DNA of 55,649 bases from Acidimicrobiia bacterium (GTDB lineage: Bacteria > Actinomycetota > Acidimicrobiia > Spongiisociales > ZC4RG35), in NCBI GenBank assembly GCA_040905925.1, contig JBBDQO010000018.1, positions 1 through 55,649 of the forward strand, in the 5' to 3' direction. The notes under the pieces were generated by a model that was not told where the DNA came from, ran no database searches, and saw only the letters and a list, made by a program, of their open reading frames with translations. This document shows positions 25,646 to 48,539 of this stretch, piece by piece. Position 1 is the first letter of the stretch, and each line of letters starts with the position of its first letter. The position numbers were made by a program, and so were the translations under genes.

Positions 25646-25900
25646 TTGAGTCTTTTAGTGGTCAAGTTCCTCACCCGGCCCGGATGTCGTCTCTGCGATC
25701 AGGCCCGGCCCCTGCTGACCTCTGTAGCGCAAGGGTTGGGTGTGTCGGTCGAGGAGGTCGACATCGACTCCAGCCCCGCCCTGACCCGCGACTATGGGTT
25801 GAGGATCCCGGTGGTCCTCGGGCCCGACAATGAGGTTCTGGCCGAAGGCGAGATCAGGGATCGCAGGCTGCTGCGCTCGGCCCTGCGCAGACTGGCCTGA
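25646..25900 (+). CDS. Glutaredoxin-like (DUF836) thiol-disulfide protein
   Basis: 84 aa. VVKFLTRPGCRLCD (CxxC) with a thioredoxin-fold length. TTG start. Confidence 0.7.
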   Translation: MSLLVVKFLTRPGCRLCDQARPLLTSVAQGLGVSVEEVDIDSSPALTRDYGLRIPVVLGPDNEVLAEGEIRDRRLLRSALRRLA

Positions 25901-25902
25901 GC

Positions 25903-26907
25903 TCAGCCGGCCAGCGTCGTGGTCGTGACCGCCCCGTCTTCGGGGGGAGGGGCTCCTTCCTCCCCCTCGGGCCCCGGCTCCTCAGGGGCGACGCCACAAT
26001 CGACCAGGGCCTGATCAGGATCCTCCCCGCCAAAGCGCACTCTCTCGAAGGTGACCACTGCCGCCAGTTGCTCTTCGCTGAGAGAGGGGTGGGGAGGCAT
26101 GTCTGCGCCGCTGCCACGGAGCGGCTTGCCGGTGTCCCCATAGGTGGTCCGACCTGCCGCCTGGAAACCGCTCGTTCCGAGCCGCACCCACTCCATGTGA
26201 TCGGTGCAGGCCCCAAAGGTCGTCAGCACACCACTCAGAGCTGGTCCGACGCCTCCGCCACCGCTCGCGCCGTGACAAGCGGCGCAGGTGGCACCTTCCC
26301 CGTGGTAGATCCTGTCACCGAGTGCCACGTAGTCGATGCCACCACCACCTGCCCCCGAACCGGTGAACTCCGATCCGTCGCAGTTGACGATCTGCCCGCT
26401 CACGACGTCCGCCTGCAGCTCCGTGGCCTCGCCGCAGATGCCGGTTGCCGAGCCTCCGAGCGCGAATAGGGCAAACAGGGGGATGATCAACATCACCGCG
26501 GCCAGCCATCTGGGGAACACGAAATTCGTCCTCTCCCGGATCCCGGCGGTGGGCACAGTGACCACCTCGGGGAGATTGGCTGCTTCGGCCGCCGACACCT
26601 CCGCGGGAACCGGGGCTCGGGTAGTCACTCCGGGTGCAGCAGGCGGGACCTGAGGCGCCGGTGCCGTGGCCTCGGCCACCGGAGCCGCCGTCTCGGTGAC
26701 CGGTTCCGGTTCGGTTGGCGCCGCGGCTGCGGGCTCCTCGGTCGCGGGCAGAGGAGCTTCTCCGGCAACTGTCCCACCACCGGCCCAAGCAGTTAGGACT
26801 TCGTCGACGGTCATCTCGGTCGCGGTGGCGCGGGCGGCGGCCGAGCGTCGGACCAGGGCCTCGGGAACGCCCAGGGCGGCGGCTGCGGCGGCGACGAGAT
26901 CACTCAC
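25903..26907 (-). CDS. Membrane-anchored class I c-type cytochrome (CcoP-like, monoheme) with an N-terminal RSAxARA module
   Basis: CAACHGASGGG...GPAL...MPPHP. One TM segment (WLAAVMLIIPLFALFALGG). GTGA overlap with the upstream gene. Confidence 0.8.
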   Translation of the reverse strand: MSDLVAAAAAALGVPEALVRRSAAARATATEMTVDEVLTAWAGGGTVAGEAPLPATEEPAAAAPTEPEPVTETAAPVAEATAPAPQVPPAAPGVTTRAPVPAEVSAAEAANLPEVVTVPTAGIRERTNFVFPRWLAAVMLIIPLFALFALGGSATGICGEATELQADVVSGQIVNCDGSEFTGSGAGGGGIDYVALGDRIYHGEGATCAACHGASGGGGVGPALSGVLTTFGACTDHMEWVRLGTSGFQAAGRTTYGDTGKPLRGSGADMPPHPSLSEEQLAAVVTFERVRFGGEDPDQALVDCGVAPEEPGPEGEEGAPPPEDGAVTTTTLAG

Positions 26908-27746
26908 GGTTGAGTCCCGGCATCGGTTGTTTGGCCGGTGGTCTCCTCGGCTGGCGACGCCACCTGACCCGGAGCGGTGGTGGTCGACTCGAGGAGATAG
27001 GCCACCAGGTCGTCCAGGTCGGAACTGGAAAGGACCTCCCCGGGATGATCGCCGAGCCCGATGATGATGGCTTCGATCTGACTGTCGGTGAGACGGGTGC
27101 CGACATCGGAGAGATCAGGCCCGAAACGACGTGCGCCGAGCACCTGGTTGGAGTCGTTGAGAGTGACCGCGCCCAGGCCGACGTCAGAGACGACGGGACG
27201 GACCATCTGGGTGTGACAGGACCCGCACCCGAGGTTCTCATAGATGTCCTTCCCCTGCAGACCGGCTTCGCTGTAGCTGATCGCACTGGTCCGGGCCCCC
27301 GGATTCTCGCTTGCGATCGATGGGCCGACCAGACCGACCAGCAACACCGCAACGAAGAGCCCGACGACACCCGCCAGCACTGTCATCGGGCGGTCCGGTT
27401 CCCCGACCAGCACCGGTGGTTTGCCCGACCGGGCGGGTCCAGGTGGGGCGGGCGGCTGTGGAGTGGCCGGGGGCAGGATGTCCCCCTGCGTTGCGAGGGT
27501 CGGCGTCTCGTCGACCGCGGGGGGTGCAGGCGGAGGCTCACTCTCCACCTCTGCCGGGACGCCGTCGGCCTCGGCGGCACTCGCCGGAGCCGGAGCCGGG
27601 GCCTCGATCGACCCGCCGCCGGCCCAGGCGGCCAGGACCTCGTCCACCGTCATCCCGGAGGCGGAGGCCCGTGCCTCGGCCGATCTCTTGACCAGGGCCT
27701 CGGGGGTGCCCAGGGCGGCGGCGGCGGCGGCGAGCAGGTCACTCAT
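26904..27746 (-). CDS. CcoO/FixO-like monoheme cytochrome c subunit with an N-terminal RSAxARA module
   Basis: GKDIYENLGCGSCHTQMVRP...RRFGPDLSDVGTR...LDDLVAYL resembles cbb3 subunit II. The start is taken at ATG 27746 by homology to the paralogous N-terminus. Confidence 0.75.
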   Translation of the reverse strand: MSDLLAAAAAALGTPEALVKRSAEARASASGMTVDEVLAAWAGGGSIEAPAPAPASAAEADGVPAEVESEPPPAPPAVDETPTLATQGDILPPATPQPPAPPGPARSGKPPVLVGEPDRPMTVLAGVVGLFVAVLLVGLVGPSIASENPGARTSAISYSEAGLQGKDIYENLGCGSCHTQMVRPVVSDVGLGAVTLNDSNQVLGARRFGPDLSDVGTRLTDSQIEAIIIGLGDHPGEVLSSSDLDDLVAYLLESTTTAPGQVASPAEETTGQTTDAGTQP

Positions 27747-29214
27747 CGGAATCGCCACCTACGGTCACCTGCCAGGTCCCTTGACGACCTTGCTCGTCGT
27801 AGACCAGCACCTCCTGGGGCACGGCCCGACCCGAGGTGACGGTGCCGATCACCGCGGAGGCGTAGGCCAGTTGGCCCACGAAGGCGATGATCGCGAAAAC
27901 GAAGGCGATGAGGAGCAGGGGATCGGCAGCCGAGGCGCCGGCGGCCCAGCCGTCTCCGGCGTTGACATAGGCGGCGCTGTTGGATCCGGCCAACCAGGAG
28001 TAACCGCTGACGATCCCGGCTCCCCCCATCGTGACCAGCACCCCACCGACACCGATCACGGTCAGTCTCTGGAATGAGCGGGCCCGGTCGGTCGATTGCA
28101 TGGCACGCCCGGTCACCCGGGGCAGCGCGTCGAAACTCACCCCCGCGACCAGCAACGGGCCCACACCGAGCAGGCAGGAGTACTCGATGGCTTCCCAGAA
28201 GGAGGTCAAGGCGGTCACCGAGCCGATCGCCCGGAATGAGGCGAGACTGGCCATCGCTGCCACCACCACACCGAGGAAGGTGCCAACCACGCCGGAGGAG
28301 ACGCCGGGTCGGTCAGCCACCCGGTCCCAATGGCCCTGAAGGGTGAGGGACACATTCGATGCGTTGGCGAGCGCACCGATGGGGAAGGCCAGGCCGAGAG
28401 CCGCGGCGACCGCATCGACCCATCCGGGCCCGGGACCGAACACCAGTTGGGCGACACCCCACCACACCGCGGCAAATCCGAGCGACCAGAAGCCGGCCAC
28501 GGCGAGCTGGCGTGAAGCCAGAGCCACGTCGGCCTCCTTGACCAGGGTGTAATAGAAGAGACCGGTCCCAACGGTGAAGACCCACATCGTGACGAAGCCC
28601 GCCGAGAAGAAGAGACCCGAGTAGGTCTGGGTGAGGGAATCGGCGAAGGGGAGGGTTCCGACGATGTGGGCGGCGAAAAGGAGTGGAAGCCAAGTCACGC
28701 CACCCATCACGAACCAGAGGGTCACGTAGGTCCGCTTCTCCTCACGGCGGGTGATCGTCGCCACGGTGTTTAGCGCGGGCAACGACAGAGCGAGCAACAG
28801 CGGCACGTCCAGCCACCAGGGGAGGCCGAGCGGTTGCAGACCGTCGCCGAAACCGAGAGCGATTGCCCCCAGACCCGCCAGCACCAGCGCGACCAACAGC
28901 ACCAGCCCACCGCGGGCCATGGCGACGCTTCGCAGCGGGGCTCCGGTGAGACGGGGCAGGACGTAGTAGATCCCACCGAGCAGCGAGATCACCAGGAAGC
29001 CGATCATCAGGGTGAGGTTGGCCATCGGCTCCAATCGACCCAGACTCATCGGAGACAGGCCCCCGAAGCGCATCGCGAAGTGGGCAAGGACTTCGAGGAG
29101 ACCACCCAGGACCAGGAACATCGCGCCAACGAGGAAGTGGGCTGCCGCAATACGATCCTCGTCGGCCCCGCCCCCGAGGAACGCTCGAATGTCTGCTTGT
29201 TGCCTGGTCGCCAC
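27739..29214 (-). CDS. Heme-copper oxidase subunit I (cbb3 CcoN)-like 12-TM protein lacking all canonical His ligands
   Basis: GTG 29214 with an AAGGA RBS. Contains LGRLEPMANLTLMIGF..GGIYYVLPRLTG and LQGHWDRVADRP, alignable to CcoN blocks. Only 4 His in 491 aa, with no HH pair and no HxH. Confidence 0.65.
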   Translation of the reverse strand: MATRQQADIRAFLGGGADEDRIAAAHFLVGAMFLVLGGLLEVLAHFAMRFGGLSPMSLGRLEPMANLTLMIGFLVISLLGGIYYVLPRLTGAPLRSVAMARGGLVLLVALVLAGLGAIALGFGDGLQPLGLPWWLDVPLLLALSLPALNTVATITRREEKRTYVTLWFVMGGVTWLPLLFAAHIVGTLPFADSLTQTYSGLFFSAGFVTMWVFTVGTGLFYYTLVKEADVALASRQLAVAGFWSLGFAAVWWGVAQLVFGPGPGWVDAVAAALGLAFPIGALANASNVSLTLQGHWDRVADRPGVSSGVVGTFLGVVVAAMASLASFRAIGSVTALTSFWEAIEYSCLLGVGPLLVAGVSFDALPRVTGRAMQSTDRARSFQRLTVIGVGGVLVTMGGAGIVSGYSWLAGSNSAAYVNAGDGWAAGASAADPLLLIAFVFAIIAFVGQLAYASAVIGTVTSGRAVPQEVLVYDEQGRQGTWQVTVGGDSDE

Positions 29215-29379
29215 CGGATTCCTTGTTCAGGACAGGACGGCGGGAGCATAACTACTTCGCCGGCTCGTTCCGTCCTCGGACAAAACCAGGGGTGGGCCCG
29301 ATTCGGGTTCTCTAGGCCGAGCCCGGTTATGGTAGAAACGGGCCGACAGCCAGTTGATCCGCGCCCGAAACAACACCAG

Positions 29380-30012
29380 ATGTACCGACTCGCAGAACTG
29401 AGCGACAGCACCCGCAGGAAAGCAGGCTGGGGAATGCTCCTGCTCGGGACCGTGCTGTTGGCGGTGGGAGTGGTGTGGATCCACTTCTCGAGTCTGTCCG
29501 AGACGGTCATGGTGGACGGTGTGGCGGTTCCACTGGTCGTCGACTACTTCAACTGGTGGCCCCGGGGTGTTTTGTGGCAGGGCGCCGGCTATCTGGTGGT
29601 GTTCGCCGCTTCTCAAATGATGATTGGTGGCGCCGTCTTCCTCTGGGTGCTCAATCAGAGGATGACCTGGTCGCGTGCGGTGTTCACCGCCTACCTGACC
29701 TGGCTGGAGTTGGTGATCATCTTTGGCATGGTCCCCTCCGAATGGCTCAGCTTCGCCCAGACCGACCTCGATTGGTCTACCCAGAGGGTCGCTCTCGTGG
29801 TGCCGCCGATCCTGGTGCTGGGGAACTCGGTCGAGGTCAGTTACGGCATGCTCAAGGACTCGATCTCGATGGGCTACCACCTGGTCATGCTTGGTGCAGG
29901 AGCGGTCTTCACCCTCGAGGTGCAGAAGATGAGGAAGGGCCGCCCGGCTGCTGCGGAGAAGCCTGAGAAGAAGTCGCCTTACGGTCGTCCCCTGGTCAAG
30001 GGAGGCACCTGA
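29380..30012 (+). CDS. Hypothetical polytopic membrane protein, first gene of the Rieske/cytochrome b operon
   Basis: ATG 29380 (the track start 28834 is antisense to the CcoN-like gene). Four or five TM helices. TGATG junction with the ferredoxin gene. Confidence 0.6.
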   Translation: MYRLAELSDSTRRKAGWGMLLLGTVLLAVGVVWIHFSSLSETVMVDGVAVPLVVDYFNWWPRGVLWQGAGYLVVFAASQMMIGGAVFLWVLNQRMTWSRAVFTAYLTWLELVIIFGMVPSEWLSFAQTDLDWSTQRVALVVPPILVLGNSVEVSYGMLKDSISMGYHLVMLGAGAVFTLEVQKMRKGRPAAAEKPEKKSPYGRPLVKGGT

Positions 30013-30461
30013 TGGTGCGCGGCGTCGTCGACGAGACCCCGCCGATCCGGGATGACTACCAGCTCGCGGTGGTCGAGGGTGACTATTTCACCGACAAGCT
30101 CCGCCCCAAGCAGTTCCTCCACATCGACCAGTCGGAGTGCATCCTCTGTGAGGGCTGTGTCGACATCTGCCCCTGGAAGTGCATCCACTATCTCTCACTG
30201 GATGCCATCACCGAGGGGGTGAACGTGGACCACCCCGCCGACGACCCCCAGAACCTGGGGTTCTTCATCGTCGACGAGGACGAGTGCACCCGCTGCGCTT
30301 TGTGTGTCGATCGCTGTCCGACCAATGTGATCTCGCTCGGAAAGTTCGAAGGCTCCCTGGCCGACCAGGCCGTCGAGCTCGGGCTGGACCGCCGGCCCTG
30401 GGATTTCGACACCGGGCAACGTGACTTCAAGAATGGGTATGCGTACGGGATGCGCTGGTAG
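30012..30461 (+). CDS. 2x[4Fe-4S] ferredoxin-domain protein
   Basis: [12 protein letters not shown] and [12 protein letters not shown]. Confidence 0.8.
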
Positions 30462-30469: not shown

Positions 30470-31246
30470 TTGGCTAACGGCAACGGCAAAGTCGGTCTCA
30501 TCGACCGTATGAAGGAGGCGAACGAGAAGCTGTGGGGGTCCCAACTCGCCGAATCGATCCTCCGCCCCGGCTCCCCCTTCAAGAAGGGCTATTCGGACAG
30601 CCCGAGGAACCGCTCCTACGTGGTGATGAACAACGTCCTCTATCACCTGCATCCGGTCAAGGTGAAACGCCACGGGGTCAGGCTCTCCTACACGTTGTGC
30701 CTGGGCGGTCTCAGCTTCTTCCTCTTCATCCTGCTCACCATCACCGGCATCTTCCTCATGTTCTATTACACCCAATCGGCGGAAAGGGCCTATGCCGACA
30801 TCGAGGCGTTGTCGACCAATGTGGCCTTTGGTTCCCTGGTGCGGAACATGCACCGCTGGGGCGCCCATCTCATGGTGTTGACCGTGTTCCTCCACATGAG
30901 CCGGGTCTTCTATCACGGTGCCTACAAGCCGCCCCGTGAGTTCAACTGGGTGGTGGGTGTTGTCTTGCTCTTCCTCACCTTGCTCCTCTCCTTCTCCGGC
31001 TATCTGCTCCCCTGGGACCAGTTGGCGCTTTGGGCCGTCACTGTCGGCACCAACATGGCGGGGTTCGTCCCCGTCGTCGGAGCCCAGGTCAAGTTCGCTC
31101 TGTTGGGCGGGGTGGAGGTCTCCGCGGCCACTTTGCTCCGGTTCTACGTGCTCCACGTCCTGGCCCTGCCATTCATCCTCGTGATCTTCCTCGCCGTTCA
31201 TTTCTGGCGGGTGCGCAAGGACGGCGGGATCTCGGGCCCTCTTTAA
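30470..31246 (+). CDS. Cytochrome b6-type (N-terminal four-helix) cytochrome b
   Basis: GGAGAGG RBS then TTG 30470. Contains [38 protein letters not shown] and [23 protein letters not shown], giving two His pairs 13 residues apart. Confidence 0.88.
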
Positions 31247-31257: not shown

Positions 31258-32361
31258 ATGACAGAGATACCAGAGAGTCTTCTCAGAAGGTCGGCAGAGG
31301 CCAAGGCCAAGGCCCTCGGCCTCTCGGTGGAGCAGGTGCTCGCCGAGATGAAGGGCGAGGCGCCTCCGGCCCTGCCCTCGGCCGCGGAACCCGAGCCGGA
31401 GGAGGCGGTCCTCGAAGAAGCTGTCGAGGAGGTTCCGCCTGCCGTCGGGCCCCCGGTCGAGAACCCGGTGGTTGAGGTCGCATCCGAGCCCGTGGTCACA
31501 CCCGAGGCGCCTCATGCTGCGCCCGCCGTGGCTTCGGAGCCCCCCGAGCCCGAACCGGACCAAGAGGCCGCTGAGGCCGCTGAGGTCTCCGAATCCGAGA
31601 TGGGGGAGACACCGGAACCCCAGGATGCGCCCGCTCCCGCGGTCGAGGCCGCGGAGGAACCGGCCGCGGTCGAGGACCTTCCCGCGGCCGCGGTCGAGGC
31701 CGCGGAGGAACCGGCCGCGGTGGCCGGGGTGATCGACGAATCGGCGCCGGCAGCCGAGGGGGACGGGGCCGGCAACGGGAAGGTCGCTGCCACCGTCAGC
31801 CCACGGCCAGTGGTGCCACCGGCCGGCACCCCGGAGGGCGTGCGCACCCAGCGACTGCTGACGGTGGTCAAGGCCCGGGCGATTCAAACCGTCAAGGCCG
31901 AGCCCACTGACAAGGTGAACACCTGGCCCCATCTGATGCTCATGGAGTTCGGGGCGCTGCTCGCGATCACAGGGTTCTTGGTGATCCTGGCGGTGATCAT
32001 CCATTCGCCACTGTTGGCGCCGGCCAACTTCAACTCCACTCCCAACCCTTCCAAGGCGCCCTGGTACTTCCTCGGCCTCCAGGAGTTGCTGTCCTATTTC
32101 GACCCCCAGATCGCAGGCGTGACCGTGCCCACGATCACCGGGATGATCGGGTTCATGATGGTCCCCTACGTTGACAAGAACCCGTCGACACGGCCCAGCG
32201 ACCGCAAGTTCGCCATAGCCCTCTATTCGACGTTCCTCGCCGGGGCGGCCACCCTCACCATCATCGGGGTGCTGTTCAGAGGACGGGGATTCAACTTCTC
32301 CTACCCCTGGAAGGACGGGGTCTTCTTCGACGACCTCAAGGACTGGGTGCAATTCGAATGA
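31258..32361 (+). CDS. Cytochrome b C-terminal / b6f subunit IV-like protein with a long N-terminal acidic extension
   Basis: ATG 31258. About 200 aa of E/P/A-rich sequence, then WPHLMLMEF...PNPSKAPWYFLGLQELL (PEWY-type motif) and three TM helices. Confidence 0.8.
   Translation: MTEIPESLLRRSAEAKAKALGLSVEQVLAEMKGEAPPALPSAAEPEPEEAVLEEAVEEVPPAVGPPVENPVVEVASEPVVTPEAPHAAPAVASEPPEPEPDQEAAEAAEVSESEMGETPEPQDAPAPAVEAAEEPAAVEDLPAAAVEAAEEPAAVAGVIDESAPAAEGDGAGNGKVAATVSPRPVVPPAGTPEGVRTQRLLTVVKARAIQTVKAEPTDKVNTWPHLMLMEFGALLAITGFLVILAVIIHSPLLAPANFNSTPNPSKAPWYFLGLQELLSYFDPQIAGVTVPTITGMIGFMMVPYVDKNPSTRPSDRKFAIALYSTFLAGAATLTIIGVLFRGRGFNFSYPWKDGVFFDDLKDWVQFE
31638..31721 (+). repeat. Direct 33-bp repeat with a 51-bp period inside the acidic linker
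   Basis: CGCGGTCGAGGCCGCGGAGGAACCGGCCGCGGT occurs at 31638-31670 and again at 31689-31721. It encodes AVEAAEEPAAV twice. Confidence 0.85.
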
Positions 32362-33236
32362 GTGCGACCAACCTCGCCCTGATCGGCGTCGCCGTGGTCG
32401 CGATATTTGGCGCTATCGGCGCCTTTGCCGTGGCCTTTCGCCGGTCACAGGGCGGAGTCCGCAAGCAGGCAGATCCCACCGCGGGTGTCTCGCCCGAGAC
32501 CAGGTCTGCCGATCGATCGATGGAAGGCGTTTCGGTGGCGCCGGTTGCGGTCGAGGAGGTGGAGCCGGAACCGGAACCGGAGCCGGAGCCGGAGGACGAG
32601 GCCGAAGTCGAGCATGCCGGGGTCCAGATAGTCCAGACCCAGCGGGTCGTCGAGGTTTCGCCCGAAGAAGGCGGGGTCACCAGACGTCAGTTCTTCAACC
32701 GTGCGATCACAGCCACCTTCGGGTCGTTTCTGGCATTGCAGGGCATCTACTACCTGGCCTTTTTCTGGCCCAAGCTGACCGGGGGCTTCGGCGCCGATAT
32801 CGACGCCGGTCTGATCACCGATCTCGAGACCCAGGTGCACACCTCGGACGGCGCCATCCTCCCCCTCTTCATCCCCGAGGCCAAGGCCTATGTGGTGCCG
32901 GCTCCGCCGTCGTTGTCCGAGCAGTTCGCCGACCAGCGGGTGGAGGCCGGAGGGCTGATGGCCCTTTTCCAACGTTGTGTCCATCTCGGTTGTCGGGTGC
33001 CGTGGTGTGGCCCCTCGCAGGGGTTCGAATGCCCTTGCCATGGCTCCAAGTACAACGCAGTCGGTGAGTACTTCGGGGGGCCGGCTCCTCGCAACCTCGA
33101 CCGGTTCGTGGTCGAGTTGGTGGACGACAGGTTCATCATCAAGACCGGCACTGTGATCCAGACTCCACGCGCCCCCACTCTCTCGCTCGACTACCCCCAG
33201 GGCCCGAGCTGTATCTCCATCGTCACTGAAGAATGA
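32358..33236 (+). CDS. Rieske [2Fe-2S] iron-sulfur subunit
   Basis: CVHLGCRV...CPCHGSKY. Tat-like TRRQFFNRA. N-terminal extra TM and an EPEPEPEPEPEDE linker. ATGA overlap with the upstream gene. Confidence 0.9.
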   Translation: MSATNLALIGVAVVAIFGAIGAFAVAFRRSQGGVRKQADPTAGVSPETRSADRSMEGVSVAPVAVEEVEPEPEPEPEPEDEAEVEHAGVQIVQTQRVVEVSPEEGGVTRRQFFNRAITATFGSFLALQGIYYLAFFWPKLTGGFGADIDAGLITDLETQVHTSDGAILPLFIPEAKAYVVPAPPSLSEQFADQRVEAGGLMALFQRCVHLGCRVPWCGPSQGFECPCHGSKYNAVGEYFGGPAPRNLDRFVVELVDDRFIIKTGTVIQTPRAPTLSLDYPQGPSCISIVTEE

Positions 33237-35137
33237 CCGCGAACCTGATAACGGTGTTTGCGCTGGTGGTCGGGATCGTGTGGCTCGGCGTGCTCTTCGC
33301 TTCGGCGATCCGCAACCGGGGTGGGGAAGAGGTCGCCCCCAATCTCAAACCAGGGATCACCGACCAGGAGATGGAGACCCGGCGACTCGAGGGTGGGCAG
33401 AAGGCGGCGATCGCCTTCTCGGCTTTTCTCGCCATCTCGCTTCCCCTCTATTTCCTCGGTGAGACGGGTCGGCAGGAGAACTTCGTCGACGAGTTCGAGG
33501 TGGCGGCGCAAGAGCGCGGGGCCCTAATCGTCGAGGAGTTCCGGTGTTTCGACTGCCACGGCCCGGAGGGGGTGGGGGGGACTGCCCGCTATGTGGAGAA
33601 ACGCTCCGGAGTGACCGTCTCCTGGGCAGCGCCCTCTCTCAACGACATCCTCTTCCGGTATGAGGAGGCCGAGGTCAACTTCTGGGTTACCTACGGTCGA
33701 GGCAATACACCGATGCCGGCCTGGGGCCTTCCTGGCGGCGGCCCTCTGACCGAGGCCCAGGTGTCGGATGTCGTCAGCTATCTGACAACCATCCAGGTGC
33801 CCCAGAACGATGCTCTGGCCGAGTTGGAGCCGGGAATCGAGGTCCAGCTCGACCGGCTCGAGACGGCGGAGGCGACGGTGACCACGGCCATCATCAATCA
33901 GGCCCAGGTTGTCGCCAACATCGTTGCCGCCCCCGCGAGATTGGTGATCGTGGACCCACTCGCCAAGCGAGCCGGTGACCTCCTCGATGACGCCGGCGAA
34001 GGCCTGGACACCGACGATGACGGTCTGTCCGATGTCGCCGAGGAGGAGCTGTCGGCGATTTCGGTCGAGGCTCTCGAAGCACTGACGGTGGTGCAGCCGA
34101 TCGCACTCGATCCAGAGACGCCAGATGCCGAGCTGGCTGAGGAGGCAGTGTTCTCGTTGGAGGAGTCGCTCGAGATCGCCCCCGTTCTCGAGATCTACCT
34201 CGATGCGATCCAATTGGCGATCGTGGAAGGGACGGTCGACCCCGCGGTTGGGATCAGCGAAGGGGCGATCACCGAGTTGGAGCCGATTGCCGCCGCAGCC
34301 GCCGATCTGGGCGTGACGGTGCCGCCGGCGATTCAGGACCTGGCCGACGCCGAGGATTTGGTCGCAGCCCTCGACGAGGCCGCCGCCGCCGAGACACCTG
34401 TTGAGGGTGCAGCGGCTCTCGCCGCACAGGCTGGCGCCTCGGTGACCGCCGGGTCCGACTCCGATGGGGACGGGCTCTCGACCGCCGCCGAAGAAGACAT
34501 CAGCAACCAGATGACCGAGGCCAACGTGTCCACGATCCCTGGTGGTCTGAGTGCGATCAGCCTCGACCCCACCAACCCGGCTTCGGTGGGCGGGGAGCCG
34601 GACAGCGCGACGGCTGCCACGATGGTGGGCAGGCTGGAGTCGCTCCACACCTCTCTGCAGGTCACCTCCGACAACATCGACAAGCTCCGGGAACAGGAGG
34701 TCGGTGGTCTCGAGTTCCTCGAGGCCGCCCAAGACACCGGCGCCTGGGAGATCGACTTCGAAGGCGTAGCCGAGGCGATGGGCGCCGAAGTCGAAACGGC
34801 GCAACGCGCGGCGGGGTTGTTCAACTCCAACTGCGCCCGGTGCCACACCGCCGGGTTCAGTGCCGGGGTGCCCTTCACCCAGGAGGCCGGGTCCGGCGGC
34901 TTTGGACCTGCCCTCTGGGATGGTCGTCCGACCGTGCAATTCGGCGAGGTGAGCGAGAATCCGGAAGACGACCTGTTGGTCAGGTTCTTGACCCGCGGAT
35001 CGGAAGCCCAGACTCCTTACGGGCTCAACGGCTTTGGCTCGGGTCGAATGCCGGCGTTTGGCGCCATTCTCAGCGAGGCGGACATCGAGCTTCTCGCCGC
35101 CTATCTACGTGGGGGCAATATGGACGGGAAGGGTTGA
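33233..35137 (+). CDS. Membrane-anchored diheme c-type cytochrome with a ~330-aa acidic insertion
   Basis: CFDCHG (33545-) and CARCHT (34832-). The domains are separated by D/E/A-rich sequence carrying DTDDDGLSD (34007-34033) and DSDGDGLST (34457-34483). Confidence 0.85.
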   Translation: MTANLITVFALVVGIVWLGVLFASAIRNRGGEEVAPNLKPGITDQEMETRRLEGGQKAAIAFSAFLAISLPLYFLGETGRQENFVDEFEVAAQERGALIVEEFRCFDCHGPEGVGGTARYVEKRSGVTVSWAAPSLNDILFRYEEAEVNFWVTYGRGNTPMPAWGLPGGGPLTEAQVSDVVSYLTTIQVPQNDALAELEPGIEVQLDRLETAEATVTTAIINQAQVVANIVAAPARLVIVDPLAKRAGDLLDDAGEGLDTDDDGLSDVAEEELSAISVEALEALTVVQPIALDPETPDAELAEEAVFSLEESLEIAPVLEIYLDAIQLAIVEGTVDPAVGISEGAITELEPIAAAAADLGVTVPPAIQDLADAEDLVAALDEAAAAETPVEGAAALAAQAGASVTAGSDSDGDGLSTAAEEDISNQMTEANVSTIPGGLSAISLDPTNPASVGGEPDSATAATMVGRLESLHTSLQVTSDNIDKLREQEVGGLEFLEAAQDTGAWEIDFEGVAEAMGAEVETAQRAAGLFNSNCARCHTAGFSAGVPFTQEAGSGGFGPALWDGRPTVQFGEVSENPEDDLLVRFLTRGSEAQTPYGLNGFGSGRMPAFGAILSEADIELLAAYLRGGNMDGKG

Positions 35138-35139: not shown

Positions 35140-35529
35140 ATGTCCGTGGTCATGGCACAGGGCGATTTCTTCCGGGAGTTCTTCCGCTCCCTCTTCTCCG
35201 CCAACCTGTTCGTCACGGGCGTGATCCTGACGATCGGGGCGGTTCTTCTTTTCTATGGCTCGATCTACCTGTTCAACGCCACCAACCTCGGGAAGAGGCT
35301 CGGGTTCCTGGTGACCGGGGCCGCCTTGTTCGGATGGCTGACCATCACCTCGATGCTCTTTGTGATCTACGCCCCACGGGGACCGAAGCCGGACAACATC
35401 GAAGGGCTCAACGCGGTCGAGATCCGCATCATCCCGGTCACCTATCTGCTGGTGTCCCTGGTGCTCTTCCTGGTGTTCCTGGTGGCCCTACACCAATACG
35501 AAGAGCTCCAGGAGAAGTCGAGCCGATGA
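35140..35529 (+). CDS. Small three-to-four-TM membrane protein, last gene of the Rieske/cytochrome b operon
   Basis: ATG 35140 lies 3 nt after the cytochrome c stop. 129 aa, hydrophobic. Confidence 0.6.
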   Translation: MSVVMAQGDFFREFFRSLFSANLFVTGVILTIGAVLLFYGSIYLFNATNLGKRLGFLVTGAALFGWLTITSMLFVIYAPRGPKPDNIEGLNAVEIRIIPVTYLLVSLVLFLVFLVALHQYEELQEKSSR

Positions 35530-35657: not shown

Positions 35658-36269
35658 TCACCTATTCCCGTAGTAGCTCAATACCTGGAGCTCCATCGAC
35701 AGGTCCACCTGACGCACCGTGACGTTGTCAGGGACGTTGACCAGGACCGGTGCGAAATTGAGGATGGAATTGATCCCAAGGGCCACCAGACGGTCGGTCA
35801 CCTGTTGGGCTGCGACCGCGGGCACGGCGAGGATCGCCATGTCGAAACATCCGCCCCGACAATCGCTATCCATGTCGTGGAGGTTCCGCACCTCCACCCG
35901 GCCCGCCCGGGAGCCGACTTTTCGGGTGTCGGTGTCGTAGACCGCAGCCACGTCGAAGCCCCGCCGGCTCAACCCAGCGTATGCCGCCAGTGCCCTTCCC
36001 AGGTTCCCGGCACCGATGATGGCGACCTGGCGGCGGTCGGCGATCCCCAGCTCCTGACGAATCCGGTGCCTCAGGTCGGCCACCGAGTATCCGACACCCC
36101 GGACCCCGTGAAAGTCGAGATGGGAGAGGTCACGCCGGACGTTGGCAGCATTGGCGCCGGCCGCCTCGGCCAACTCCTCGGAACTGACGGTCTCCTTGGA
36201 TTGGAAGTCCTCGAGCAATCGAAGGTACCGGGGGAGTCGGACCACGGTCGCCTTGGGAAGCTCACTCAT
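35658..36269 (-). CDS. rex: Redox-sensing transcriptional repressor Rex
   Basis: TVVRLPRYLRLLE...SSEELA...VRRDLS and Rossmann motif VAIIGAGNLGRALA. Start taken at MSELPK (36269). Confidence 0.9.
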   Translation of the reverse strand: MSELPKATVVRLPRYLRLLEDFQSKETVSSEELAEAAGANAANVRRDLSHLDFHGVRGVGYSVADLRHRIRQELGIADRRQVAIIGAGNLGRALAAYAGLSRRGFDVAAVYDTDTRKVGSRAGRVEVRNLHDMDSDCRGGCFDMAILAVPAVAAQQVTDRLVALGINSILNFAPVLVNVPDNVTVRQVDLSMELQVLSYYGNR

Positions 36270-36349
36270 CGCGGGCGACGTTAGACCTTCTGCCTCGATT
36301 CCCAGCTCGAAGGGTTCTTGCTCGATGCCAACCTCTAACCTGACCACCT

Positions 36350-37588
36350 ATGCCTTCTCCCTCGGTGCTCGTCATAGGTGGTGGCCCCGCCGGGTCGGCG
36401 GCCGCCTACTGGTTGGCACGGGAGGGACACGACGTCACCCTGGTCGAGAAGAAGGAATACCCCCGTGACAAGACCTGTGGCGATGGCCTGACCCCGCGGG
36501 CGGTCCTTCAACTCCAGGAGATGGGATTCGACTTCGAAGTGCCCCAGTTCCACACCATCACCGGGCTTCGCTCCTACGCCGGCGACGATCTGATGCTCGA
36601 ATTGCCCTGGCCCGAGCATTCCCGGTTCCCCAACTGGGGCGGAGTGATCCGGCGCAGCGACCTCGACTCACAGGTGGCAACGCTCGCCGCCAAACAGGGT
36701 GTCTCAATCCTGGAGAAGACCGAGGGATTCCCAACCATCGAGGGCGGCTTCCTCACCGGCGTTACCTTGAAGCACAACGGGTCGATCGATATGGTGACGC
36801 CCAGGGTGACCGTGATCGCAGACGGGTCCATGAACCGTTTCGGGCGGGAATTGGGCACCGAGCGACGCCGGGACTACCCGATGGGACTCGCCGCCCGGGG
36901 CTACTACTCGTCACCGCGTTCCACCGACCCCTTCCTGGAGAGCCAACTCGACCTGCGCGACTCCTCGGGAGCGACCATGCCCGGTTACGGCTGGGTGTTC
37001 CCTCTCGGTGACGGGACGGTCAACGTCGGTGTGGGCCTGCTCTCCACCTTCACGCGGTGGAAGCACGTCAACACCACGCACATGATGGCCCACTACGCCG
37101 CCACCGCCCCCTCCTACTGGGGGTTCAGCGAGGAATCCAAGCTGAGCAACCCGGTCGGGGGCAAGCTCACCATGTCGTTTTCGAAGGGGCCACTGGTCGG
37201 CTCCAACTGGATCACGGTCGGGGATGCCGCAGGGGCGATCAACCCCTGGAACGGCGAGGGGATCTCATACGCCTACGAGACGGGCCGGATGGCTGCCGAG
37301 CACATCGGAGAGGCTCTGACCCGGGACGACCTCGGGTTGCTCCGTCGCTATCCGCAGCATCTCGACGACGAGTACGGGCTCTACTACAAGACGGCGCGGG
37401 TCTTCGTGAAGCTGATCGGCCACCCCTCGGTGATGCGGACTCTGGCCCACACCGGCCTCCACAATCGCACGCTGATGGAGTGGACCCTCAAGGTGATGTC
37501 CAATCTCCTCGACGAGGACGACAAGCACATGGGGGAAGGGGTCTACGACGCCTTGGCCGGTGTGGTTCGGACTCTGCCGACCGCGTGA
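36350..37588 (+). CDS. Geranylgeranyl reductase family FAD-dependent oxidoreductase
   Basis: VLVIGGGPAGSAAAYWLAREGHDVTLVEKK, CGDGLTPR and GDAAGAINPWNGEGI. Confidence 0.85.
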   Translation: MPSPSVLVIGGGPAGSAAAYWLAREGHDVTLVEKKEYPRDKTCGDGLTPRAVLQLQEMGFDFEVPQFHTITGLRSYAGDDLMLELPWPEHSRFPNWGGVIRRSDLDSQVATLAAKQGVSILEKTEGFPTIEGGFLTGVTLKHNGSIDMVTPRVTVIADGSMNRFGRELGTERRRDYPMGLAARGYYSSPRSTDPFLESQLDLRDSSGATMPGYGWVFPLGDGTVNVGVGLLSTFTRWKHVNTTHMMAHYAATAPSYWGFSEESKLSNPVGGKLTMSFSKGPLVGSNWITVGDAAGAINPWNGEGISYAYETGRMAAEHIGEALTRDDLGLLRRYPQHLDDEYGLYYKTARVFVKLIGHPSVMRTLAHTGLHNRTLMEWTLKVMSNLLDEDDKHMGEGVYDALAGVVRTLPTA

Positions 37589-39292: not shown

Positions 39293-39415
39293 CTGGTCCT
39301 TTCGTTTGACAACTGCGCAGCCTATGGGCGTCGCCAGAGATAGGGCAGGCAGGCTGCGAGGTCGCAACCTGTGCCTGATTTACCGCACCAACCGGCCGGT
39401 TCTAAGCTCAGATCC

Positions 39416-39826
39416 GTGACACTCGCCGACTATCTGCCCATCGGCCTGATGCTGCTTCTGGCCGGGGCGTTCGTTGCGGTGTCGCTCAATGTCTCCCGAT
39501 TCTTCCGTCCGCACAACCCGACGCCGGAGAAGCTCGACCCGTACGAGAGCGGCATCGTCCCTGAGGTCGAGCCGGTACAACGATTCCCGGTGAAGTTCTA
39601 TCTGGTGGCGATGCTCTTTGTGATCTTCGACGTCGAGATCATCTTCCTGTTTGCTTGGGCGTCGATCTGGGACCGGCTGGGCTGGTACGGGGTGGCCGCC
39701 GTGTTCATCTTCACCTTCTTCGTGGCCGAGACCCTCGCCTACGTCTGGAAGCGGGGCGCCCTCGATTGGAACGTGCACCGGCGGACCCGCTACCTGCCCT
39801 CCGACTCGTCGGAGGAGGCGGCCTAG
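39416..39826 (+). CDS. nuoA: NADH-quinone oxidoreductase subunit A
   Basis: PYESGI...RFPVKFYLVAMLFVIFDVEIIFLFAW. The start is uncertain (GTG 39416 or GTG 39371). Confidence 0.85.
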   Translation: MTLADYLPIGLMLLLAGAFVAVSLNVSRFFRPHNPTPEKLDPYESGIVPEVEPVQRFPVKFYLVAMLFVIFDVEIIFLFAWASIWDRLGWYGVAAVFIFTFFVAETLAYVWKRGALDWNVHRRTRYLPSDSSEEAA

Positions 39827-40294
39827 ATGGCCACCACCGCTCCGGGCAACCTGATGATGACCACCGTCGACAAGGCGGCGCGTTGGGCCCGGACCCGGTC
39901 GATGTTCCCCGCCACCTTCGGGCTGGCCTGCTGTGCCATCGAGATGATGGCCACCGGCGCCGCCCACTACGACCTGGCTCGCTTCGGGATGGAGGTCTTC
40001 CGCGCCTCACCGCGGCAGGCGGACCTCATGATCGTTGCCGGCCGGGTGAGCCAGAAGATGGCTCCCGTCCTGCGCCAGGTCTACGACCAGATGCCAGACC
40101 CCAAGTGGGTGATCTCGATGGGAGCCTGTGCCTCGACCGGCGGCATGTTCAACAACTACGCCCTGGTCCAGGGTGTCGACCAGGTGGTCCCGGTGGATAT
40201 CTACGTGCCCGGGTGCCCGCCCGGCCCGCAAAGCCTGATGCACGGCATCCTCACCCTTCACGACAAGATCATGAACGGCGAGATCAACAATTGA
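39827..40294 (+). CDS. nuoB: NADH-quinone oxidoreductase subunit B
   Basis: [18 protein letters not shown] and PGCPP. GGAGGAGG RBS. Confidence 0.95.
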
Positions 40295-40827
40295 GCGACG
40301 AGACGACGACCCTCGAGGGGACGCCGCCGGCTGAACCCACACGACCGCTTCCCGAGAATCCAGTGCTTCGGACCTTGTTCGAGGGCTTTGAAGCGGTGGG
40401 ATGGGAGAGCTCGCTCGGTCAGGACGTGGCACGGGTTCCCAACGAGACATGGGCCGAGTTCGCACATGCCGCCAAGGAAGCCGGTTTCGAGGTCTGTGTC
40501 GACGTGACCGTCGTCGACTGGATGCGGGAGCGCCCCGAGCGGTTCGAGATCGTGGCCAACCTGCTTTCGATGTCCCACAAGCTTCGGCTCCGGATGATGA
40601 CCACCGCGGGGCGGATCGATCCGTCGGTCGCGTCCCTGGTCCCGATCTGGCCCGGGGCCAACTTCGCCGAGCGCGAGGCTTACGACATGTTCGGCGTGGA
40701 TTTTGAGGGACACCCCGATCTGACCCGCATCCTGATGCCCGACGAGTGGGAGGGTCACCCGTTACGCAAGGACTTCGCGGTCGGATCGGTCCCGGTGCAG
40801 TTCAAGGAAAGCCATCAGGTGACTTGA
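40291..40827 (+). CDS. nuoC: NADH-quinone oxidoreductase subunit C
   Basis: TTGA overlap with nuoB. Contains [24 protein letters not shown]. Confidence 0.9.
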
Positions 40828-40828
40828 G

Positions 40829-42190
40829 ATGAGCGAGCCAACCTCCGAAAGCCCCGAGATCACCGAGACCCTGGAACTCTGGGTCGCCGGAACCGAGGAG
40901 CCCGAGTTCAGCCCCACCGACGAGGGCGAACAGGAGATCTCTGACCACGAGTCGGAGGTTCGTCTCGATGAGCAATTCGGCCGGGTGGTGGAGGACGATT
41001 ACGTGTTCGACGACGGGATCGACGAGGGGGAGCGGATGATCCTGAACATGGGCCCCCAGCATCCTTCGACCCACGGCGTGCTCAGGCTCCAGATCGAGCT
41101 CGAGGGCGAGATCATCCGGCGTACCAAGCCGATCATCGGTTATCTCCACACCGGGATGGAGAAGACGGGGGAGCAGCTCAACTTCTCCCAGGGTGGGACC
41201 AATGTGACCCGAATGGACTATCTGGCTCCGTTCCACAACGAGCTGGCCTATTCCCTTGCAGTGGAGCGGTTGCTCGGGATCGAGGTTCCTCCCCGGGCGG
41301 CCGCGATCAGAGTCCTTCTCACCGAGTTGAACCGGTGCTCTTCCCACCTGGTGGCCCTGGCCACCAACGGAATGGACATCGGCGCCGTCTCCATGATGAT
41401 CTATGGGTTCAGGGAGAGGGAGCAGATCCTCGCCTTCTTCGAGAAGACCACCGGGCTACGGATGAACCACAACTTCATCCGTCCCGGTGGGGTGGCCGCA
41501 GACCTGGCGCCGGGTTGGAAGGACGATGTGGCAGCGATCCTGGTTGAGCTGCCGAAACGTGTGCACCAGTACGACGACCTGCTGAAGGACAACCCGATCT
41601 GGCAGGCTCGGACCCGTGGTGTCGGGGTCATCACCGCAGAGGAGGCGATTGCCTACGGGATCACCGGGCCGCCGCTACGGGCAACAGGGGTCTCCTGGGA
41701 CCTGCGCAAGGCATTCCCCTACTCCGGGATAGAGAACTACGAGTTCGAGGTGGCTGTCGGAGAGCACGGCGACGTCTACGACCGCTACCGGATCCGGATC
41801 GACGAGATCCACGAGTCGTTGAAGATCGTGGAGCAGGTGATGGACTCGATGCCCAAGGGTGACTTCCGGGTGGACGACCGCAAGGTGACACCACCGCCCC
41901 GGGCCCGCATCGATGAGTCGATGGAGGCCCTGATCCATCACTTCAAGCTGTTCACGGAGGGGTTCAAGGTGCCGCCCGGCGAGACATACGTGGCGGTGGA
42001 GTCACCGAGAGGGGAACTGGGCTGTTATCTGGTCTCCGACGGAGAGGCCCGCCCCTACCGGATGCACACCCGGGCGCCTTCGTTCACCAACCTCCAGGCG
42101 TTGCCTATCGCCATGGCCGACTCGCTTATGGCCGACACCGTGGCCACCATCGCCTCTATGGACCCGGTGATGGGGGACGTCGACCGCTAG
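40829..42190 (+). CDS. nuoD: NADH-quinone oxidoreductase subunit D
   Basis: MILNMGPQHPSTHGVLRL, GYLHTGMEK and DPVMGDVDR at the C-terminus. Confidence 0.95.
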   Translation: MSEPTSESPEITETLELWVAGTEEPEFSPTDEGEQEISDHESEVRLDEQFGRVVEDDYVFDDGIDEGERMILNMGPQHPSTHGVLRLQIELEGEIIRRTKPIIGYLHTGMEKTGEQLNFSQGGTNVTRMDYLAPFHNELAYSLAVERLLGIEVPPRAAAIRVLLTELNRCSSHLVALATNGMDIGAVSMMIYGFREREQILAFFEKTTGLRMNHNFIRPGGVAADLAPGWKDDVAAILVELPKRVHQYDDLLKDNPIWQARTRGVGVITAEEAIAYGITGPPLRATGVSWDLRKAFPYSGIENYEFEVAVGEHGDVYDRYRIRIDEIHESLKIVEQVMDSMPKGDFRVDDRKVTPPPRARIDESMEALIHHFKLFTEGFKVPPGETYVAVESPRGELGCYLVSDGEARPYRMHTRAPSFTNLQALPIAMADSLMADTVATIASMDPVMGDVDR

Positions 42191-42193
42191 CAC

Positions 42194-42229
42194 CGCTTAC
42201 CTGAGGTACCTGGCGCCATATATGGCGCC
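42194..42229. repeat. Left 36-bp inverted repeat bounding the nuoD-nuoE cassette
   Basis: CGCTTACCTGAGGTACCTGGCGCCATATATGGCGCC is the reverse complement of 46502-46537 at 34 of 36 positions. It contains the palindrome GGCGCCATATATGGCGCC. Confidence 0.9.
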
Positions 42230-42253
42230 ACCTCGACATGGTTGCCCAGGAAC

Positions 42254-42673
42254 TCAGGATGTGAGAGCGAGCTGCCTCAACATCGCCGCGGTGTCCCAAT
42301 ACGACAGGATGGAGTCGATCTGGCCGTCGACGAAATCGATACGGAACGCTCCGTTGGTCCGGTATTCCTTGCCCGTTGGGTCGTGGGGTCCCATCGATCC
42401 AAGCATCGTCCCTCCATGTGAGATCTCGGCGAAGATGGTCGTGGCGTCGGACACTGTGTCGAGCTCTTCCATGCGCATGTCGGGAAAGGTCGTGAAGATG
42501 GTCTGCCAGTGCTTTCTCGCCTCTTCCTTGCCTTTCGCTGGCGGCATGGCGGCCCCAGCTGCACTCTGGATGGTGATGCTCTCACTGACCATCGTCAGCA
42601 TCTGGTCGATGTCGTGGGCGCGGTGAGCCGCTATCCAGCGACTGAAAACTTCGAGATTCTGTCTGTCGGACAT
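42254..42673 (-). CDS. SnoaL-like / NTF2-fold (ester cyclase-like) protein
   Basis: 139 aa. NLEVFSRWIAAHRAHDIDQMLTMVSE...FAEISHGGT...FRIDFVDGQI. Confidence 0.65.
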   Translation of the reverse strand: MSDRQNLEVFSRWIAAHRAHDIDQMLTMVSESITIQSAAGAAMPPAKGKEEARKHWQTIFTTFPDMRMEELDTVSDATTIFAEISHGGTMLGSMGPHDPTGKEYRTNGAFRIDFVDGQIDSILSYWDTAAMLRQLALTS

Positions 42674-42734
42674 TGTTCCTCCTTGGCTTCGTCCTCAAAG
42701 GGAACATACGACCAGATTCCTGACGTGTCAACTA

Positions 42735-42763
42735 CTGTTCTGGCAATTACTGATGCGGAACAG
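42735..42763. promoter_or_regulatory. Candidate MarR operator (inverted repeat) in the divergent intergenic region
   Basis: CTGTTC (42735-42740), 17 nt, then GAACAG (42758-42763), between the SnoaL-like and MarR genes. Confidence 0.3.
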
Positions 42764-42782
42764 AGCTGCGTAGGATGACGGG

Positions 42783-43238
42783 ATGAAGTCGCCACTGACC
42801 GCCGAAGCCCTCGACGCATGGCGCGCGATGCTGTTCGCCAGTTCGCATGTGGTTCAGGCCCTCGGCGCCGACATGGAGGAAGACCACGGTCTGCCCATCA
42901 CCTGGTTCGATGTCCTGGGCAGGCTGCGCCAGGCCCCTGAAGGTCGGCTTCGCATGCACGAGCTGGAGGAGCAGTCAGTCTTCACCAGGAGCGGTATCAC
43001 CAGGCTCGCTGATCGCATCGAGAATGCAGGCTTGATCGAAAGGGTGAGGTCCTCGTCTGACCGGCGTGGGGTCTACCTCAGGATCACCAACGCCGGGATC
43101 GAGAAGCTCGATGAGATCTGGCCGGATCACCAGCGGAGTATCTGGCAGCACTTCGCCCGCCACCTCGACGCCTCCGACCTTAGGGCGTTGCAACGCGCTG
43201 CAGAGAAGATCAAGGCAGCCCGAGAGGAATCACGGTAG
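42783..43238 (+). CDS. MarR family transcriptional regulator
   Basis: Winged-helix segment FDVLGRL...MHELEEQSVFTRSGITRLADRIENAGLIERVRSSSDRRGVYLRITNAG. Confidence 0.85.
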   Translation: MKSPLTAEALDAWRAMLFASSHVVQALGADMEEDHGLPITWFDVLGRLRQAPEGRLRMHELEEQSVFTRSGITRLADRIENAGLIERVRSSSDRRGVYLRITNAGIEKLDEIWPDHQRSIWQHFARHLDASDLRALQRAAEKIKAAREESR

Positions 43239-43288
43239 AGCTGGGATCGATCAGAGCCAGCCTTGACGATCGAGACGGAAGTCGACTG

Positions 43289-43636: not shown

Positions 43637-43649
43637 GGCGATTCCGGCC

Positions 43650-44938: not shown

Positions 44939-44952
44939 ATGGAACCTCCTTA

Positions 44953-44995
44953 GGTAGTGCGCTCCAGACACTACCACGCAATGCGGAGTAGTGCG
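44953..44995. promoter_or_regulatory. Candidate PadR operator
   Basis: Perfect inverted repeat GGTAGTG (44953-44959) / CACTACC (44969-44975), plus a third GTAGTGCG half-site (44988-44995) directly upstream of the PadR start. Confidence 0.4.
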
Positions 44996-44997
44996 TT

Positions 44998-46537: not shown

Positions 46538-46585
46538 TTTGTGGGTTTCGCTACGCCATCAGGGGCTACCTATTCTCCGGCACCG

Positions 46586-48519: not shown

Positions 48520-48539
48520 TGGAGCCGTTCCTCGTCCAG

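Follow-up and report, generated by a model that had tools for sequence, protein, structure and literature searches.

The C-family (cbb3-type) cytochrome c oxidases, known from the structures of the Pseudomonas stutzeri (PDB id: 3MK7) and Rhodobacter capsulatus (PDB id: 6XKW) enzymes, consist of CcoN, a heme-copper oxidase (HCO) subunit I with 12 transmembrane (TM) helices, and of two subunits with c-type hemes, CcoO and CcoP. An HCO subunit I is defined by six histidines, of which two bind heme b, one binds heme b3 and three bind CuB. In several bacteria, an active cbb3 oxidase and a Rieske/cytochrome b complex, encoded at unlinked loci, form a bc1-cbb3 supercomplex (CIII2CIV of R. capsulatus, 6XKW; the Pseudomonas aeruginosa assembly, 8SMR; an alphaproteobacterial assembly, 9G83). 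A survey of HCO diversity (bioRxiv 10.1101/2021.10.15.464467) described six new families, each of which has metal sites; a cofactor-less family is not among them. Here, we analyse a 55,649-nucleotide stretch of contig JBBDQO010000018.1 (assembly GCA_040905925.1, Acidimicrobiia bacterium), referred to below as the window, to which all coordinates refer. It encodes a CcoN-like protein (protein A) in which none of the six histidines is left, followed by two cytochromes c (proteins B and C) and facing a divergent operon for a ferredoxin-Rieske-cytochrome b6 complex. To our knowledge, which rests on an incomplete literature check, a cofactor-less family of HCO subunit I has not been described.

Protein A (27739–29214, minus strand) is 491 residues long and has the 12-helix fold of HCO subunit I, as judged by Pfam, AlphaFold2 and Foldseek. 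It passes the threshold of Pfam COX1 (PF00115, 70.8 bits vs a cut-off of 34.8), and among solved structures the cbb3 CcoN chains come closest to it in sequence (6xkw_n, phmmer E-value of 1e-13). The AlphaFold2 model (pLDDT of 77.5, pTM of 0.83; weak at residues 408–423, among others) matches CcoN along its whole length with Foldseek TM-scores of 0.83–0.87 to 3mk7_A, 9g83_t and 6xkw_n. The best Foldseek matches, cbb3 CcoN 9g83_t and 3mk7_A, are followed by NorB of the cytochrome c-dependent nitric oxide reductase (cNOR) and then by subunit I of the A and B families. A first-pass annotation of this DNA, made from the sequence alone, had noticed the likeness to cbb3 subunit I by eye, and the profile, phmmer and structural comparisons all uphold it. 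At the same time, A scores far below the NCBIfam ccoN equivalog cut-off (TIGR00780, 96.6 bits vs 583.15).

The loss of ligands was judged by three independent comparisons, namely a phmmer alignment, a MAFFT alignment and a superposition of the AlphaFold2 model on CcoN structures. In the phmmer alignment with R. capsulatus CcoN (6xkw_n), the heme b histidine of GRLRPLH falls on A65, GPHH on G253-V-A255-Q256 and GHVH on A-I343-E-Y345, and WWYGHN faces a gap. In the MAFFT alignment with the 101 full-length cluster representatives described below, the CuB ligand H207 corresponds to A205 and the cross-linked tyrosine Y251 to A249. The six ligand positions are thus occupied by A65, A205 (or the gap), A255, Q256, I343 and Y345. 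Protein A contains four histidines in total, none of which lies within about 20 residues of any expected ligand site; the single one that is kept among 120 orthologues (60–96% identity) is H26 at the N-terminus of the first helix, and none of these 120 has a histidine at a ligand position. The exact count and the alignments agree with the first-pass annotation, which had reported four histidines and the replacement of all six ligands, and the check that it had proposed, with PF00115 and the cbb3 structures, confirms the loss. As read from these alignments, A cannot ligate heme b, heme b3 or CuB as any known HCO does. Because every heme- and copper-binding residue is lost, A could not respire oxygen and is almost certainly not an oxidase; the earlier idea of a scaffold that cannot bind heme b or CuB is upheld by the alignments, the fold and the selection acting on the gene.

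The loss extends beyond the metal ligands. We take the cross-linked active-site tyrosine on helix VII to be Y251 in P. stutzeri numbering and, following 3MK7, assume this numbering to equal that of A plus 2 between positions 205 and 345. The proton-channel residues T215, S240, Y317 and E323, which we assigned by the same offset, are T, S, Y and Q/E in canonical sequences and are replaced by F213, A238, G315 and M321 in A. Two arginines conserved in canonical sequences are also gone, and the glutamate of the calcium site is lost in the orthogroup of the window (G130).

Protein A belongs to a wider group of similar proteins. A HMMER search of 1.84 billion cluster representatives gave 652 matches (E ≤ 1e-3), and ligands were counted in the 101 full-length representatives among the best 150 of them. 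At the columns equivalent to H60, H257, H258, H345 and H347, 70 representatives have no histidine, eight have one and 22 are canonical. With the H207 column, which was checked separately and is histidine in about 1% of the 70, all six ligand columns are histidine in 86–100% of the canonical representatives (100% at five columns, 86% at that of H347) and in 0–1% of the ligand-less ones, a contrast that is not due to chance. The cross-linked tyrosine is present in 95% of the canonical sequences and replaced by W, A, G or S in the ligand-less ones. The ligand columns of the latter hold A, G, S, V, L, F, W, R or Q, with no common substitute ligand, and the four proton-channel columns are apolar across the clade. 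The canonical sequences have 63 conserved columns; the ligand-less ones retain 31 of these, mostly Gly, Pro, Trp, Tyr or Arg. The lost columns include the equivalents of T215, S240, Y251, Y317 and E323, the two arginines and four glycines; the latter are replaced by bulkier residues, which may fill the heme pockets. This is the pattern expected if the fold was kept and the chemistry discarded.

In a neighbour-joining tree, a rough method, 68 of the 78 ligand-poor sequences fall in one clade without a canonical member, which suggests that the ligand-less relatives of A are largely monophyletic. Clade members with an organism name are all from Acidimicrobiia or Actinomycetota, and the nearest canonical relative with such a name is from Anaerolineae (one case). 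The clade contains natural fusions of the CcoN-like protein to a FixO/CcoO domain (P0155, P0167, P0180 and P0210), which speak for a tight pairing of A with B. Another ligand-less representative, P0157, carries a C-terminal cupredoxin domain instead of the CcoO domain, which hints that different redox partners have been attached to the dead scaffold.

The gene for A is widespread and under purifying selection. A scan of one genome per GTDB species found it in 100 species, the best 80 of which are all Acidimicrobiia metagenome-assembled genomes (MAGs), a few of them under other labels. Neither the scan nor the protein searches returned a named isolate that carries A; all named matches are MAGs. 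In the 120 orthologues, 118 columns are conserved at 97% or more. The orthologue survey and the ratios of nonsynonymous to synonymous substitutions (dN/dS), both suggested in the first-pass annotation, show that the ligand-less state is conserved and that A evolves with a pairwise dN/dS of 0.08–0.2, B with one of about 0.2 and C with one of 0.1–0.15; the values are 0.02–0.06 for the neighbouring cytochrome b6, 0.06–0.16 for the Rieske protein and 0.01–0.03 for the ferredoxin. Protein A is not the product of a pseudogene. In a single case among 86 loci, a long-read MAG (L059, 10001–11474), the orthologue is split into two overlapping open reading frames (ORFs), either by an assembly-error frameshift or by a real disruption. 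Many of the MAGs with this cluster bear the title 'uncultured Acidobacteriota bacterium' (MFD series; L002, L007–L009, L011 and others) and a few 'Gammaproteobacteria' or 'Boseongicola'; these labels are probably wrong.

The genes of A, B and C form an operon of three translationally coupled minus-strand genes between 25903 and 29214, as the first-pass annotation had it: the ORFs are found at these coordinates and the junctions were read directly. The operon is also intact, as had been claimed, with its reading frames and coupled starts and stops confirmed. The listed ORF of B (26904–27758, minus strand) starts at GTG 27758; the ATG at 27746 (MSDLL...), which parallels the start of C (MSDLV...), is the likely true start. 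The A/B junction (ATGAGTGA; ...GATGAGTGA) has an 8-nt overlap between the ATG of B (27746) and the TGA of A, and the B/C junction is GTGA, with an overlap of 4 nt. The G+C content at third codon positions is 0.74–0.81 in the three frames, which is typical of genes in the window (64% G+C).

Protein B (26904–27746, minus strand; 280 residues from ATG 27746) is a CcoO/FixO-like mono-heme cytochrome c made up of an N-terminal motif, a Pro/Ala-rich linker, a TM helix and a heme c domain. Residues 131–226 match positions 12–116 (of 219) of Pfam FixO (PF02433) with 42.4 bits vs a cut-off of 29.6, and the CXXCH is invariant in 72 orthologues; the match, the N-terminal TM anchor and the CXXCH are features that B shares with the FixO/CcoO family. 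It falls below the TIGR00781 cut-off (37 vs 200.65). The motifs LGCGSCHTQMVRP and GPDLSDVG are present and conserved. A loop of about 17 residues that carries the distal methionine ('WSxMPxY') is deleted in all 93 separate (unfused) CcoO-like proteins, B of the window included, and a conserved histidine ('xHPx'; 'GDHPG' in B) is found at the site of the deletion in the same 93 proteins. The loop is present in all 19 fused forms. With the loop deleted and a histidine conserved in its place, the heme of B is probably His/His-ligated or five-coordinate.

Protein C (25903–26907, minus strand; 334 residues) is a membrane-anchored cytochrome c with the same N-terminal motif and a match to Pfam Cytochrom_C (26.8 bits). 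Its motifs CAACHG and MPPHP are present and conserved. It has a single CXXCH, scores below the cut-off of PF13442 (22.6 vs 27) and does not match TIGR00782, so it lacks the two hemes that define CcoP. By its motifs, C is a generic class I mono-heme cytochrome with His/Met ligation, and the CcoP-like identity given to it in the first-pass annotation does not hold. The claim that both partners keep their c-type heme sites is only partly right: the CXXCH of B and the CXXCH and MP of C are kept, and the distal methionine of B is lost with its loop. Protein C carries four further conserved cysteines. Convergent to it, with stop codons 2 nt apart, lies a gene for an 84-residue glutaredoxin-like CxxC protein (RPGCRLC; 25646–25900, plus strand), which is syntenic in 64 of 80 loci, and the equivalent gene of L085 matches a glutaredoxin-like Pfam family. 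A link between this protein and the four extra cysteines of C or cytochrome maturation is possible.

The key to the module is the neighbouring set of Rieske and cytochrome b genes, to which the first-pass annotation gave less weight. The A-B-C operon is separated from it by a divergent intergenic (promoter) region (29215–29379, read directly), and all genes of the Rieske/b6 operon lie on the plus strand. The first gene (29380–30012) encodes a conserved small membrane protein (about 204–210 residues; 77 of 80 loci by tblastn) with no Pfam or NCBIfam family match. It is followed by a 2[4Fe-4S] ferredoxin (30012–30461; 149 residues; Pfam Fer4 families), an unusual subunit of a Rieske/b6 complex in itself. 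The ferredoxin is the most conserved protein of the cluster: between orthologous loci, its identity is 86–99%, and it still reaches 73% where that of A has dropped to 29%. Together with the cytochrome b6, it stands well above the other proteins of the cluster in conservation. The cytochrome b6-type protein (30470–31246; 258 residues; Pfam Cytochrome_B, 164 bits) scores 301 bits against NCBIfam ExtP. Since this is above the cut-off (290) of an equivalog named 'selenite/tellurite reduction operon', PGAP would probably use that name. It also carries a Cys motif, 'TLCLGG', which we take to resemble the heme ci/cn attachment site of b6f-type cytochromes. Next come a subunit IV (PetD)-like protein with an N-terminal motif and an acidic linker (31258–32361; Pfam Cytochrom_B_C, 27.4 bits; ExtQ, 53.7, below the cut-off of 150) and a Rieske [2Fe-2S] protein (32358–33236; Pfam Rieske; b6f-type Rieske NCBIfam families below cut-off).

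The last two genes of this operon encode a membrane-anchored di-heme cytochrome c (33233–35137; 634 residues; two Cytochrome_CBB3/Cytochrom_C domains with conserved CXXCH and MP) and another conserved small membrane protein (35140–35529; 129 residues), which is found in 59 of 80 loci, that is, in all those that reach so far. The heme domains of the di-heme cytochrome are separated by an acidic insert of about 330 residues with two conserved DxDxDGxxD motifs (DTDDDGLSD and DSDGDGLS), which look like calcium-binding TSP3 repeats; its L084 orthologue has a faint match to TSP3_bac.

The order of these genes is identical in all 80 species loci wherever the contig reaches: a Rex-like regulator, the small membrane protein, the di-heme cytochrome c, Rieske, subunit IV, cytochrome b6, ferredoxin, the other small membrane protein, then divergently A, B and C, and finally the glutaredoxin-like 84-residue protein. 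The same order surrounds relatives that are 39% (P0424) and about 29% identical to A (the fused P0155, P0309 and P0330). In all four of these distant loci Rex is nearby, and in three of the four so are the nuo genes. When the ferredoxin was used as a bait (60–100% identity), a divergent COX1-like gene was found in every metagenome locus with room upstream, and all 53 loci with a long match have no histidine at any of seven catalytic columns; there is no liganded intermediate among them. The A-B-C module is thus genomically inseparable from one type of Rieske/b6-ferredoxin operon.

A second link between the two operons is an N-terminal motif of about 35 residues common to B, C and subunit IV, with the consensus GIPEaLvrRSAEARAxxxGxSVDEVLA, which is followed by a Pro/Ala/Glu-rich linker and a TM helix. 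A hidden Markov model (HMM) of the motif finds three matches only in the six-frame translation of the window, in B (27612–27746, minus strand; about residues 1–45; 98 bits), C (26773–26907, minus strand; 92.7 bits) and the subunit IV-like protein (31258–31365, plus strand; 68 bits). All three copies recur in each of the 61 loci that contain the three genes, and none of the lineages examined lacks the motif. Judging from how CcoO and PetD are oriented in the membrane, it is presumably cytoplasmic. In the fused CcoN–CcoO lineages L081–L083, subunit IV has 3–4 tandem copies and the cytochrome c has one. Subunit IV and the cytochrome c of L085 have one copy each, so the compensation of copy number seen in L081–L083 is not a rule. 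The motif profile gave no convincing match among PDB sequences, and a ribbon-helix-helix identity is not claimed, the matches of the tandem copies of L081 being sub-threshold (VAPB_antitox, E-value of 8e-4; FitA-like, 0.019).

The Rex-like redox-sensing regulator (35658–36347, minus strand) is conserved beside the cluster in every lineage. It is syntenic in 56 loci, and a protein with Put_DNA-bind_N and CoA_binding domains occupies the same position in L081 and L083. No TTGTGAAN6TTCACAA-like site with three or fewer mismatches occurs anywhere in the window, and Rex control of the divergent promoter is therefore unsupported. Beyond Rex, the window contains a flavin adenine dinucleotide (FAD)-dependent oxidoreductase (36350–37588, plus strand) and a nuo (complex I) operon (39371–55566, plus strand). 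A neighbourhood of FAD oxidoreductase, large GDH and nuo genes recurs in the distant fused lineages L081 and L083; these surroundings are a conserved respiratory gene island. At the other end of the window, 1–4218 (minus strand) encodes a class II (B12-dependent) ribonucleotide reductase, split by an intein that carries a LAGLIDADG homing-endonuclease domain; the ORF extends past the window start.

On balance, we favour the reading that A is a catalytically dead 12-helix scaffold that anchors c-type cytochromes to the Rieske/b6 complex as a relic of a Rieske/b-cbb3 supercomplex. Protein A would be a cofactor-less descendant of a C-family HCO subunit I and would form, with B and C, a cbb3-shaped module that has no oxygen-reducing centre. 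The module would either belong, as a set of subunits, to the ferredoxin-Rieske-cytochrome b6 complex of the divergent operon or be its fixed partner. In it, A would hold the hemes of the membrane-anchored B and C at the outer membrane face, from where they could relay electrons between the di-heme cytochrome c and a terminal acceptor whose genes lie elsewhere. The shared cytoplasmic motif would link the two sets of subunits, with B and C on one side and subunit IV on the other, either directly or through a shared partner. Such a module would probably descend from a Rieske/b-cbb3 supercomplex whose oxidase half became catalytically dead and was retained as a structural component. Physical co-assembly of A, B and C with cytochrome b6, subunit IV and Rieske is something that we infer from the synteny and the shared motif.

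Several points weigh against this picture. Synteny and a common motif could reflect co-regulation or a shared assembly route. The near-invariant columns of A, which include E62, E159, E227, Q256, E344 and Y345, exceed the apparent need of a passive anchor. If the heme of B is His/His-ligated and of low potential, it would be ill suited to relaying electrons in a high-potential chain. No terminal oxidase or acceptor gene is found nearby, and there is no second COX1-like gene in the 1.45 Mb of the window and related loci. Finally, the AlphaFold2 model of A is poorly defined at residues 233–271, around the former CuB site.

A bolder form of the scaffold reading, which we put forward only tentatively, is that quinol oxidation in Acidimicrobiia runs through an undescribed supercomplex in which the ferredoxin-Rieske/b6 complex is permanently joined to a heme- and copper-less 'fossil' cbb3. 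The dead subunit would then be an obligatory adaptor, and the shared motif would staple the two halves together or to the ferredoxin.

That the A-B-C module is instead a free-standing electron-transfer unit, merely co-regulated with the Rieske/b6 operon, seems unlikely to us. Protein A would then be a platform for the hemes of B and C, which would shuttle electrons in the heme c-poor actinobacterial envelope. The two operons are indeed separate and divergently transcribed, in most bacteria the cbb3 oxidase stands alone as a complex, and B and C have TM anchors of their own. However, A and the Rieske/b6 genes accompany each other without exception whichever of the two the search starts from, even where A is only 29% identical; B and C share a motif with subunit IV, which has 3–4 tandem copies of it in two fused lineages.

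Somewhat less likely still is that A has gained an activity that does not depend on histidines, such as a site for a quinone or a metal, a path for ions or protons gated by redox state, or a heme with Tyr, Glu or Gln as ligands, with E62, N66, Q256, E344 and Y345 as the residues to consider, and with the Met-less heme of B as a possible reactive or sensing centre. Q256, E344 and Y345 coincide with former ligand positions or adjoin them and hardly vary, if at all, within the orthogroup, many other columns of A are conserved, and the distal-Met loop of B is replaced by a conserved histidine. On the other hand, the same columns hold A, R, V, L, F or W across the wider ligand-less clade, the polar residues of the proton channel have become apolar, and clade-wide conservation is confined to structural residues shared with canonical enzymes.

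A decaying cbb3 pseudogene remnant, which the loss of all catalytic residues and the split ORF of L059 might suggest, is very improbable and is refuted by the low dN/dS, the near-invariant columns, and frames that are intact in about 100 species and 53 of 53 metagenome loci, with coupled starts and stops preserved. A working cbb3 oxidase whose ligands were lost only to misalignment is what annotation pipelines imply when they name A 'cbb3-type cytochrome c oxidase subunit I', but its chances are practically nil, the direct reading of a sequence with four histidines, none near a ligand site and only H26 conserved, the agreement of three alignments and the low TIGR00780 score having refuted it.

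That name is the one given to A-type proteins by both PGAP and IMG, and a metabolic reconstruction that infers high-affinity respiration under micro-oxic conditions from these genes in an Acidimicrobiia MAG would be mistaken. A class-wide, strongly selected family without any of the six histidines points to a fold that is kept for a non-catalytic job, and A would be a pseudo-enzyme of a rare kind, embedded in the membrane as part of a respiratory chain. The fixed pairing with the ferredoxin-Rieske/b6 operon suggests an undescribed variant of complex III or a supercomplex in a class that is widespread in soil, sediment, freshwater and marine habitats. Because the partner genes are named, this idea is testable.

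Among known systems, the cbb3 oxidases are the closest. Protein A has the 12-helix fold of CcoN with many of its structural Gly, Pro, Trp and Tyr residues, the translationally coupled genes follow the same order (N, O-like, a further cytochrome c), B matches FixO/CcoO, and N–O fusions are also found in some canonical enzymes. Unlike CcoN, A lacks the ligands of heme b, heme b3 and CuB and the cross-linked tyrosine, has apolar residues at the proton-channel positions and has lost the glutamate of the calcium site. Unlike their counterparts, B lacks the distal-Met loop and C has one heme, compared to two in CcoP, and there are no CcoQ or ccoGHIS genes near A-B-C. The module lacks defining features of CcoN, of a complete CcoO and of CcoP and should therefore not be filed as a cbb3 oxidase. 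The next-best structural match, cNOR (NorBC, PDB id: 3O0R), also pairs its subunit I with a mono-heme cytochrome c, but NorB keeps all six histidines and the glutamate ligands of FeB, none of which is present in A.

The Rieske/b6 half resembles the ExtM/O/P/Q-type complexes of Geobacter (NF040969, NF040970) in having a cytochrome b6 that passes the ExtP cut-off, a 4Fe-4S ferredoxin, a Rieske protein and a subunit IV-like protein, although ExtQ is below its cut-off here. We know of no CcoN-like partner of the Geobacter cluster. A precedent for an enzyme fold retained in a respiratory complex after the loss of catalysis is provided, by analogy only, by Core 1 and Core 2 of the mitochondrial bc1 complex, inactive relatives of the mitochondrial processing peptidase (MPP) that are kept as structural subunits, a role shown experimentally. 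These are soluble and have an unrelated fold, whereas A is embedded in the membrane. The bc1-cbb3 supercomplexes differ from the assembly considered here in that their cbb3 half is active and their halves are encoded apart, whereas here a dead cbb3-like half is always encoded next to the Rieske/b6 half; in addition, the b subunit is of the split b6/subunit IV type and a ferredoxin subunit is present. The architecture proposed here from the genes would otherwise be theirs: a Rieske/b complex joined to a cbb3-shaped module through c-type cytochromes that are anchored in the membrane.

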